A stretch of 63,484 bases of DNA, the filler included, from Raillietiella orientalis (Eukaryota): assembly GCA_036172245.1 (NCBI GenBank). It is 19 parts of 19 records of this genome, joined end to end, with 100 filler letters (N's around TTAATTAATTAA, not from the genome) between each part and the next. Parts side by side here need not be neighbours in the genome. Positions count along the whole stretch, not along the records: positions 1 to 3,472 come from JAYWIR010000368.1; 18 more parts are not named here. One strand, given 5' to 3'. Both the position numbers and the translations under genes were made by a program. The notes below the pieces were generated by a model. That model made no database searches and was not told the DNA's origin. It saw only the letters and a program-made list of their open reading frames with translations. Below, in pieces: positions 1-3,472 of this stretch (within the stretch, counting starts at the first letter, position 1; each line of letters opens with the position of its first letter).

Positions 1-1390
1 AACTGGCCTTATAGGGGTCTGGCTGCAACGAGGCAGCCAGCTCCTCCGCGGCCCGCGCGAAGGCTACGTCATCGATGGTGGTGTCGATGACGGACGCCGC
101 CGCAGTCTCGCTCCCCTCGCTGTTGACAGAGTCAACAGAGATGTTGTGGTCGGTAGCGGCGAGTTCTCTTCCGCAGCGGTCAGGAATACGCTCTACGGTA
201 ACGCTGCATTCCTTAATTTGCTCGCTTGCCTTCTGTTTTTTCTAGCGGTACGCGAGCTTTTTTTCCAATCTCCTCTCCTTTTTTTTTTTTTTTGCTTTTG
301 CCACCTGCCTCCCAGGCTCCTGGCTACTTCCTCCTACTTGTTTGGCGTTGTTTGCCGGGGTCTCAGGTGCGGTCAGGGCTTTAAGCGCGGGTGGCACAGC
401 CTTCGCGGCAGCTTTCGCCGCCAGCTTTTTCTGCAGCAGCCGGGCGCGTTTTTTAAGGTTTCTCTTGGAAACCACCCGCACTGCTGCTTTTAGGCACACC
501 TCCCTCGTGTGCCCCATTGTGCCGCATACTTGGCACTGCACATTGGGACACCTCTTTTTGAGGTGGCCCGACGTATTGCGGAAGCCACAGTATTTCGACT
601 TCCCCACATACGAGAGGTCGACGGTTTCGCCTTCGACCATAAGTTTGTGGGGAAGGGTGCAGCCCTTCCAAACGGTCACGCGCGCAGCAGTGAGGCCGTG
701 TTGCAGCCCCGTGCAGTTCTCGAAAGGACTAACTTCGGTCCACTGCGCGTGGACCGTTCCGTATTCCTCCAACGCGGCGCGAACCTTTTCCTTGCGCATC
801 CGCGCGGTAACACTTGACAGGTGGACCACCATGCTGCGGTCCGCTGTAGTGGGGAGGAGCCTGCGCGTCCCCATTACAACGGGGGTTTTAAGCAGTCGTT
901 GGGCCAGCTCTACATGCTTTCAGATGACCTCAACGTACTGACCGCCGCTGCGAATGGTCATAGCGCTGAGGTCCTCCTGTTTCACATCGAGTGCGCGCAT
1001 GCCCTTCGAGAAGGCGCGCGCGCTCTCTAAAGAATAAAGATTGCCTACCTTGTTGAACAATGAGGGATTGCAATCCTCCTCTACAGAGGCCGAGAATTGC
1101 GCCGCGGCTGCAGTCGATGGCGCCGACACAACGGCGCTCCACGCCCGCTTTGCAGCGGGGACCGATTCTGTGGGGGCGCATGCATTCACCTCCATCTTCT
1201 CTGAGGGCGGCGTTGTTGCCGCCCCCTAGCTGTCTATCGAATCTGGAAGCGGCGTTTCCGCTGCCCCCTGGCCATCCCTGGTGGTCGCGTCAGGCATCGC
1301 TGCCTGATCAACCACCGAACCACACAACGATTGCACTGGGGGTGACTTCCTGGCACGAGGAGCAGCGAGAAAACACGTCCGCTTTCGAGT
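1..1390 (-). mobile_element. Tx1/L1-like non-LTR retrotransposon, 5' end with disrupted ORF1 (ATG near 1297)
   Basis: ORF1 pieces 920-1195 and 242-874 with zinc knuckles (CQVCGTMGHTREVC); 5' motif GGACGTGTTTTC at 1380-1369; homologous to ORF1 at 17964 and 33765. Confidence 0.88.
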
Positions 1391-1405
1391 GCATAAGGCG
1401 TTTGA
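1391..1405 (+). other. 15-bp target-site copy (RT L-H-K-A-F-D codons) separating two tandem elements
   Basis: g cat aag gcg ttt ga lies between the 5' end of one minus-strand element and the 3' end of another; same register as 3573-3587, 15841-15855 (minus) and 60604-60618. Confidence 0.8.
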
Positions 1406-3472
1406 TTTTCACCCGGATTTCTCCGGGTCGTTTATTAAAAAATAAACTTTATAAAGTAATTATTAATGGCTGTTACAATGCTCCAGCCAGAAGCTAAGAA
1501 CCACCGAGCCTGCCAATTCACCGGGTTCTAGACCGTTACGGTCCACCAAGGCAGCAGGGGAAAGGGGAAAAACAAAAAAACTAAACAAAAAGAAACAAAG
1601 GGTGGGAGGGAACGGGAAGAAATCACTGATGCTGCTGGGGCCGCATCATCCCTCTTAGGATGCTGACAAGCTCTTGTTTGTTATGAACATCCAAGTGGGG
1701 CCATCGCGACGCCCTCCTCAGGAATTGGGAGGCGCACTGGATGGCGTCCATATCGCTAGGTCCTCCCGTCGCCGTGCTCCAGGCGGCGACGATCCCACGA
1801 AGGCAGCACAAGGCTGCTATGGAGGACGCTGGCCGCAGGGCGTCGGCAACGAAGAAGGCTTTTAGTGCGTCCCTGGGGTTGCCACAAGGGATACCGATGG
1901 CCGCGGCAAAGCGGAACCAAACGGGCCGAAGGGTAACACAATCCACTAGGAGGTGGGGGAGGGACTCCCGTTCCCCGCACCTTGCACAATTGGGATCCAC
2001 CGCTCCCCAGGTCCAGTGGTGTCGACGGGCATTGCAGGGGAGTCCCCAGTGCTGCAACAGGAATGCCGACTCTTGCCATTTTAGGGGGAGGATAAAAGTG
2101 TTCATAAGAATCGGGGGCCACTTCAGATGTTCAATCGGAACATCCAGCAGCTCTCCTCAGCGCAGAAGTCCATTAGGAGGCGTACTCGGGGTCGCAGCAT
2201 CAGTTAGCTGGCCCGTCTTCCACTCTCTCTGCTTCTTCTCCTTCCCGGAGATTTTTATTGTAACCTCCCACTTCGTCGCAACATCGCTGTCCTGATGTTT
2301 CACTAGGGAGTCCAGCGCAGCAGCGAGGGGGGTTCTTCCTCACCACGCTCTCTTCTTAGGATCCTCCAGGATCTCACGGAGCGTGCAACTTCTGTAACAC
2401 CCAAACAGGAACCTTCGTTCCTGATGGGAGGGTTGCATGCCGAACTGTACCCACGTGCGAACGGTTTCCTGCAACCAGGCACTACAGTTCGCGGGGAGAC
2501 AGGTGATCCATCCTAGATTTTTCCTTGCCAGCGCAGCCACCCTCCGTAGCTGAAGCCCACATCGGTTGATGCGGTTTCGATGGAGTGCAAGAAACGACGT
2601 CAGTCCCGTCTTGCCGGTGGCTTGCTGAAGGAGAAGACGTGCAGGGACGCACCAACAGATGCACCACAACTCCGGCACTAGTACCAAAATCCGGAACTGG
2701 AGCTTCTGCTGCAGCCGCTCCAATGTCAGGAGGCCGAGACCACCGTCCCGACGCGGAGCGCACAAGTCCTTTAAGCAGACACGGTCCCTCCCGTTGCCCC
2801 AAAGGGCGATACGGAGGAGGTCCTTCGTCCGCTTTTTGATCCTCTCTGTGGGGGAACAAACAAAAAGCAGGGAACGGAGGAGAGGAGCCGCGAACATGTT
2901 CCAAACCGCGGCCCGTTCAGGCAGGAAAAACCTGCCGCTTCGGATCGGGCCGATAGCCGTCTCTACTTTTTGAAGGCAGCCGGACCACGCTTCCGCAGGG
3001 GAGTAGTCCCCCAACTACACACCAAGGTACTTGAAGTACCTCACTGTGGAGATCCCCAAACGGACCCAGTCCTGCTGCCCTGCCCACGCCGCACCAACTG
3101 GCATCACGGACGACTTCGCTTTGTTCACCGTAAGCCCGGTTCCTCGATTCAGCAGGTCGAAGAACTTCTCGATTGCCGAAGCCGGGGTGGACATAGGGAG
3201 CAGTAGCAGGAGGTCGTCCGCCTATGCTGAAACCGCAGGCGTTCCGGCGCATTCATGCGGCAGTTGCGCAAGAGTTTCCCTGTACGCTCTCAGTAGCAAC
3301 TCAAAGTAGGTATTGAAGTCCAAGGTGCTCAGGCTGTCTCCTTGCCTGATCCCACGTCGCACCGGCACGCCGTGAACAGTATGCCCGCTGAAAGTTACAT
3401 TGATTTGCGAATCGCGCCAGCTAGAGCGCAGATAGGCCAATAATAAGGCCGGGAAGCCCAAGCTTTCCAAAA
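1406..3472 (-). mobile_element. Tx1-like element family A, 3' half; ORF2 pseudogene (RT C-terminal part plus CCHC), 3' UTR and terminal hairpin
   Basis: GIRQGDSLS, YADD-region and KYLGV remnants broken by stops and frameshifts; CARCGERESLPHLLVDC; stop at 1623; AATAAA-hairpin-GAAAA at 1436-1406. Confidence 0.92.

Follow-up and report, generated by a model that had tools for sequence, protein, structure and literature searches.

A LINE family of Raillietiella orientalis that probably inserts into the reverse transcriptase motif of related LINEs and carries a copy of its target

Site-specific long interspersed nuclear elements (LINEs) are known to target rRNA, tRNA, small nuclear RNA (snRNA) and spliced-leader genes, microsatellites, telomeres and a DNA transposon. 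Drosophila R1 makes 14-bp duplications and builds tandem arrays by inserting into the target copy at the 5' end of an earlier element; in the melanogaster group, its RNA is inferred to include target sequence from upstream, which would pair during second-strand priming (PMC2718515). Tx1 inserts into the Tx1D transposon (PMC4494074), and transposons are one target class listed for site-specific LINEs (PMC4640811). Here we describe a LINE family, family A, found in a 63,484-nt stretch of the Raillietiella orientalis assembly GCA_036172245.1 (the window, meaning the whole stretch analyzed), which inserts into reverse transcriptase (RT) codons of related LINEs.

The window consists of 19 small contigs in falling order of length, joined by 18 linkers of the form N44-TTAATTAATTAA-N44 (e.g., 3473-3572). 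The contigs are unrelated, so neighbourhood across linkers carries no meaning. Positions 1-3472 are an entire contig (G000:C368), a 3.5-kb repeat fragment from an assembly of 210 Mb. Labels of the form L068 denote individual loci retrieved from the genome.

The tandem junction and its target site

Positions 1391-1405 read GCATAAGGCGTTTGA, on the + strand G-CAT-AAG-GCG-TTT-GA, or HKAF plus two bases of D. This spacer separates the 5' end of a minus-strand LINE (1390) from the 3' end of a second minus-strand LINE (1406), and no host RT flank was found on either side of it within the contig. An exact-pattern search of the genome demonstrated 33 matches to the junction at a fixed 25-nt spacing, versus 1 for the reversed control, with tandem junctions several megabases into large contigs. 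The window geometry is shared by 28 of the 30 loci retrieved with the junction (window locus counted); one of the others has a short deletion and one is a host-RT junction. The window junction is neither chance nor a one-contig artefact.

A complete family-A copy (L068; 5,566 bp) has two ORFs: ORF1 carries CCHC motifs, and ORF2 combines endonuclease-like motifs with RT and, at its C terminus, a zinc motif. We take WNVNG, LQE, DFN and SDH in its ORF2 to be the endonuclease (EN)-like motifs. The ORF2 stretch in the window matched Pfam RVT_1 (4.6e-22) and, weakly and under the curated cut-off, zf-RVT (E=7e-4); PF03372 matched ORFs of sister families only, in a scan of window ORFs and not of the family-A EN. 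The best solved-structure match of the protein was L1 ORF2p (3.5e-36, versus 4.8e-11 for R2), in a PDB that represents few clades. L1-group traits present in family A include a separate ORF1, 5' truncations, a fixed 3' end and target-site duplications (TSDs). From these sequence features, family A appears to be an L1-group LINE of 5.56 kb with a putative apurinic/apyrimidinic endonuclease (APE-type). It shows target-sequence preference, one of the traits of the Tx1 clade. It does not insert in 28S rDNA as R1 proper does, its target being LINE RT codons. The nearest database homologue is a single metagenome protein (P0001, 69% identical), all others being at most 31% identical. P0001 is an ORF2 on a metagenome contig with motif A intact, which suggests that the lineage exists beyond the R. 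orientalis assembly. A metagenome scan for relatives yielded seven distant loci only, and no look-alike windows were found in other genomes.

Family A inserts antisense into the KAF|DCV codons of RT motif A, a motif whose first Asp is presumably catalytic, and the 3' end of the element is fixed. A pattern search of the genome found 129 exact junctions, with host D-L-x-K-A-F codons joined straight to the family-A 3' end, and 934 intact motif sites, giving an occupancy of ~12% (129/1063), where 129 and 934 are lower bounds that miss tandem or decayed junctions. Scored by eye, ~67 of the 100 listed 3' ends (of 207) are at the KAF|DCV site, and ~94 of the 100 listed 5' ends (of 185) are followed by the 15-mer leader and host DCV; a last-base filter of both patterns leaves out tandem junctions. 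Tree and flank comparison showed that the hosts belong to several sister families and, in some cases, to family A. Site saturation was rejected, as the 14 intact motifs of another pattern were an undercount against the 934. Self-avoidance by way of family A's own CGR codon was also rejected, the codon occurring by eye at 12 of 100 listed intact sites versus 11 of 100 listed inserted ones; self-insertions (L080, L084, L132) contradict it as well.

Other 3' ends were observed besides these. Family A has a second site within motif A, a TCGA|CTG that spans the V-D codons and is read on the other strand, and insertions there are in sense orientation (L067, L085; G000:C31:3674, C31:9878). An extra A, with no TCGA flank, is present at ~12 of the 100 listed 3' ends (e.g., G000:C6:2797172, C11:1289295), which may represent another family or T-rich priming.

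The length of the duplication was read from 85 unique 3' junctions, 62 of which were followed to the alignment end (9 full-length copies, 53 shorter). Eighteen of the 53 shorter copies show a duplication within two mismatches, identical over 14 nt in 15, and the commonest length was 14; the other 35 show none within that limit, and most of them end at nested insertions or rearrangements. Identical 14-mers thus occur in 15/18 recognizable truncated copies versus 0/9 contiguous full-length copies, which have 1-4 mismatches (Fisher p=5e-5). With four borderline rows scored as misses and five interrupted full-length copies included, the count was 15/22 versus 1/14 (p=4e-4). At base 1 of the 15-mer, C occurs in 0/87 5'-side copies versus 14/22 host-side copies; A or G is present there in 86/87 leaders. 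Given the 14-nt duplications of truncated copies and the element-specific base 1, we set the duplication at 14 bp. A preliminary description of this DNA had placed an HKAF spacer between the 5' end at 1390 and the 3' end at 1406, which is confirmed by its 33 occurrences genome-wide, and had proposed insertion at one specific, reusable site, which the 129 host junctions and 33 tandem junctions bear out. Its TSD length of 15 bp has to be corrected to 14, the fifteenth base belonging to the element.

Origin of the 14-nt leader

On the sequence evidence, the window spacer is the target-copy leader of the left element, and full-length copies usually bring their 5' 14-mer with them. Leader class tracks the 5' 300 nt of the element (nearest neighbour 27/49, p<1e-4), versus 19/49 (p=0.054) for the host flank. 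In the tree, each terminal class has a prevailing leader class (12/15 ACGT, 25/31 GCAC, 16/26 ACGC, 11/15 GCAT), and the window spacer is of the GCAT type carried by 11/15 5' ends of its terminal class. The flank test used 64 references, including 40 retrieved from 100 listed intact hosts, and was applied to the 47 5' junctions whose right flank is at least 85% identical to an intact host. The 14-mer equals the local host family motif in 17/47 of these, versus 17/23 control 3' junctions (Fisher p=0.005). Host flanks are clearly concordant in 6 of 11 two-flank full-length copies. Three of them are informative (L076, L119, L131), with both flanks 92-97% identical to one host, and in 3/3 the left 14-mer is that of the host and the right 14-mer follows the element subfamily. 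A non-host KAV variant is present in 9/87 leaders, and off-target full-length copies retain 11-15 nt of leader (L141, L144). In L142 the leader is followed by CT and filler, and then by a different 14-mer. Raw mismatch between left and right 14-mers was dropped as proof of a leader, being confounded by recombinants, and the test was redone with the 40 additional intact hosts.

An ordinary host-derived 15-bp TSD from two successive insertions, with no target sequence carried by the element, is very improbable on these data. Truncated copies do make true duplications, in tandem as well (L066, L005, L020), and ancestral R1 arrays have a TSD between units (PMC2718515). Several counts also weigh against an element-borne leader. 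Only the 6 of 11 two-flank copies are clean, L126 and L130 being recombinants, L100 rearranged, L128 without a left reference and L112 borderline; the raw 0/9 match count overstates the case, as the two flanks of some copies come from different hosts; 17/47 leaders are identical to the host motif; and in three clean two-flank copies (L110, L122, L125) the right 14-mer equals both host and leader, which fits a plain TSD. Those three are uninformative because leader and host agree. Against the host-derived TSD stand the 14-nt length with its element-specific base 1, the non-host right 14-mer in the other three clean copies, the 30/47 leaders that differ from the host family versus 6/23 controls, the non-host KAV variant and the leaders kept off target. 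We conclude that, for full-length copies, the host-derived TSD model is largely refuted.

A second explanation makes the 14-mer a constant, inherited component of the 5' UTR, acquired a single time in the distant past, transcribed from a start at its edge and not refreshed from targets, its role in integration perhaps lost. The strong linkage of leader to subfamily seen in the terminal-class counts speaks for it. Leader variation, however, is mostly at codon positions where hosts differ; some leaders are identical to less common host versions or have a mosaic look (L037, L084); and nearly all full-length 5' ends are at the target while many truncated copies are not, a difference which suggests that leader homology is used. 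We regard a fixed 5' UTR as unlikely, if still a serious contender.

Mismatches between leader and host could also be post-insertional, through ectopic recombination, gene conversion or repeat misassembly. At least 2 of the 11 two-flank copies are recombinant, the contig with the window junction is itself a repeat fragment of 3.5 kb, and duplicated loci exist (L094/L100, L095/L099). Recombination within an element, however, would not part the 5' end from its own right flank, and it is this flank that the 14-mer fails to match in 30/47; conversion tracts would need to end exactly at the nick; and tandem junctions inside multi-megabase contigs speak against misassembly. Of all the explanations raised, we give this one the least credence. 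Recombination among LINE islands was observed in its own right: L126 and L130 have flanks of different host families, and the L094/L100 and L095/L099 pairs are inverted duplicates of whole nests.

The preliminary description took the spacer for a host TSD, which is true of truncated copies, whereas the 14-mer of full-length copies travels with the element. It had named as the contrary case a 15-mer forming an invariant part of the element's 5' UTR at unrelated loci. At such loci the 15-mer is part of the element 5' end, but it is variable, and target specificity, resting on other evidence, is unaffected.

Proposed course of insertion and features of the window

The right-hand copy in L005 and in L020 is truncated and has the 14 nt of the spacer exactly duplicated, with host DCV next; L021 is the same with one mismatch in the duplicated 14 nt. 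At off-target sites the base after the nick is C in 8/11 (by eye), unlike the TTTT of a 3' end. This preference, together with L005 and L020, indicates that the right element most likely entered a site rebuilt at the left 5' end, an event in which the window spacer was most likely cut a second time.

The proposed course of events is as follows. Family A inserts antisense to the host at KAF-GA|CTG, within the RT motif A of related LINEs. The 14-bp duplication of truncated copies implies that the host sense strand would be nicked after TTCGA and that the other cut would be made at a distance of 14 nt, as expected from established target-primed reverse transcription (TPRT). The 5' 14 nt of full-length copies reproduce a previous target and go with the subfamily of the element, and the RNA of such copies would start ~2 nt beyond this leader. 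The cDNA end could then anneal to the 14-nt overhang, giving precise completion in which the version of either strand may be fixed. Leader plus host CTG would make up the full target again, and the next copy could land there, leaving the order 5' end, leader, 3' end, as at 1390/1406. We assign a probability of about 0.82 to the model as a whole: a site-specific antisense L1-group LINE, a 14-bp TSD, an element-carried leader, site rebuilding and the resulting tandem junction.

Capture of the leader in RNA is suggested by a GGACGTG box 10 nt inside the 5' end, conserved in ~10 sister families, which resembles a downstream promoter element (DPE). DPEs of insect LINE promoters are at +28 to +32 (PMC4748587), and this spacing places +1 at the A of the host-derived CAGT, 2 nt past the nick. 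The box therefore suggests that transcription starts within the target. Among the ~10 sister families with the box, 3 have CA at the +1 position and ~6 a pyrimidine-purine step (by eye); the CA spacing is suggestive only, because the fixed insertion geometry sets that base regardless. Two failed joins (L142, L143) end in leader plus CT, agreeing with the predicted start. The leader might instead enter RNA by host antisense read-through and a 5' self-cleaving ribozyme, as in R2, which relies on flanking transcription (PMC4494074); at tandem junctions like that of the window, moreover, AA stands where the CA start motif is predicted. No ribozyme family matched in Rfam at four loci spanning the 5' end (E up to 5), for which an HDV-like ribozyme was dropped, and conservation of the box over the sister families also argues against a ribozyme. 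We consider this route improbable and keep the DPE-set start as the proposed one.

Further points count against the model. Specificity is not strict: ~29 of the 100 listed 3' ends (of 207) are elsewhere, 11 of them after TCGA, and 4 of the 100 are at the opposite-strand TCGA|CTG within motif A (by eye). The start site is read from spacing and from the two CT junctions, L143 having an alternative reading. The order of events for the two window copies is deduced, because both far flanks are outside the contig.

Features of the window are collected in the table. The left copy has a putative ORF1 ATG at 1297 with the frame broken by stops, and no Pfam match was obtained for 242-919 in its region; its contig begins at the usual point of sister-family interruption (a recurrent break at family-A reference 4170-4183). 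On the right, the contig stops ~40 nt before the element's own motif A, and the far flank is out of view. Four further junction halves are present in the window, at 3573, 15841, 51347 and 60604; after the last of these leaders (60604-60618), host RT resumes at (D)CV on the + strand.

Coordinates of family-A and host features in the window.
Feature	Position	Strand	Remarks
Left family-A LINE copy, 5' UTR and ORF1	1..1390	-	From translation; ORF1 gag-like, CCHC-type motifs
GGACGTG box, DPE-like	1374..1380	-	Common to many sister families; putative function
Base 1 of the 15-mer	1391	+	Element's own, outside the duplication
14-nt RT motif-A target copy (HKAF plus GA)	1392..1405	+	Left element's leader, CAT type; inferred target of right element
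Right family-A copy, 3' 2.06 kb	1406..3472	-	Fixed 3' end 1406; 7-bp hairpin 1411-1428; AATAAA 1431-1436; broken ORF2 C-terminal half
Family-A copy, separate contig	3573..7033	-	Motif 15-mer 3573-3587; 3' end at 3588; open ORF2 stretch 3808-6705 with RT and weak zf-RVT
Family-A 3' fragment, antisense, separate contig	15325..15840	+	Behind degenerate host motif 15855-15841 (-); host RT upstream to ~16737
Host motif A (ALAVDLHKA), separate contig	51290..51347	+	Contig ends inside motif, i.e. broken at insertion site
Family-A 5' end and leader, separate contig	60582..60680	-	5' end 60582-60603; leader 60604-60618, non-host KAV variant

Other nested insertions were also recorded. A sister family inserts in the same orientation in the family-A linker near QPEPSKAGKK, at reference 4170-4183 (L040:124, L047:145, L126 (minus) 4636; window 1); recurrent non-host variants on its 5' side hint that it may have a leader of its own. 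Another family is antisense at reference 4368 in family-A ORF1 (L036:311, L053:367, L080:3269 and others), where one exact junction recurs widely, and another is antisense at the RT DAKL codons, reference 2338-2357 (L063:2896, L064:2906, L112:2853/3726, L078, L124), with a 14-nt duplication in L112. The 5' ends of further families adjoin endonuclease codons, namely LIAGDFN (sense) and an apparent SDH region (antisense), at L030:2607, L103, L111, L115, L127, L114:2337 and L071:4236. At window 14176-14300, a sister-family 3' end adjoins family-A-like ORF2 sequence in antisense. The window also contains a full U4 snRNA match (48809-48946, -, 88 bits) in a LINE-rich contig, an rDNA contig (10704-14059) with 5.8S, internal transcribed spacer 2 (ITS2) and large subunit (LSU) sequence and a GC content of ~66%, and 180-bp tandem repeats, ~90-97% identical (41697-44937 and 51448-54415), a candidate satellite.

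Significance and comparison with described systems

When the target is an RT motif shared among relatives, its copies increase with the clade, host genes are left alone and the ORF2 of competitors is disrupted. How the LINE 5' junction and the second strand are completed is a long-open question. The family-A target is degenerate at codon third positions, so natural variation tells donor bases from recipient bases, a marking unavailable in rDNA-targeting R1 and R2, and these marks make 5' junction and second-strand completion directly testable. The proposed homology-assisted step of full-length insertion is relevant to retrotransposon-based gene insertion. A wider proposal, which we offer tentatively and hold to be somewhat doubtful, is a clade of LINEs that insert mutually in conserved coding motifs, keep only the downstream box of a promoter and take their start from the target, with the captured target guiding integration and being refreshed from the host. 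If true, this would be a self-renewing target memory in which on-target copies gain twice, by promoter and by precise full-length integration; the site would be rebuilt after each insertion, and leader change could allow new specificities.

A literature search, with most subscription journals and Repbase reports outside its scope, found no match for a LINE targeting RT-motif codons of related LINEs. Zepp of Coccomyxa resembles family A in forming GC-rich clusters of LINEs nested in LINEs, but has one cluster per chromosome, and the available part of its account describes no exact motif target or leader (PMC3446292); family A uses exact sites on many contigs. Group II introns of Methanosarcina likewise have a perpetual site-specific home in related retroelements, giving nests, but they are prokaryotic, self-splicing and recognize targets by RNA pairing (PMC4424553), whereas family A is eukaryotic, would use TPRT and breaks the host ORF. 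Insect LINEs with initiator (Inr) plus DPE promoters (jockey, Doc, G, I, F, SART1, TRAS1) have, as family A does, a CGTG-type box near the 5' end (PMC4748587); unlike theirs, the family-A start predicted from the +28 spacing would fall beyond the leader by 2 nt, on bases that come from the host. Xenopus Tx1L and the clade named after Tx1 are, like family A, L1-group and target-specific, and they are APE-type, as family A putatively is (PMC4494074, PMC4640811), but the Tx1D target is a non-autonomous DNA transposon and that of family A the RT motif of its own and sister LINE families.

Drosophila R1, an APE-type element, is like family A in having a fixed 3' junction, a 14-bp TSD, tandem arrays and some off-target copies (PMC2718515). 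The two differ in target, which is 28S rDNA in R1 and an antisense coding motif of related LINEs in family A; in the carried piece, which in family A is the duplicated 14-mer itself and in melanogaster-type R1 is sequence upstream of -9, with a 9-bp deletion; and in protein, which in family A is L1-like, unlike R1. By this comparison family A would work like R1 but is not classed as R1. Its mechanics appear R1-like, and what seems new is the target class and the donor-marked leader.
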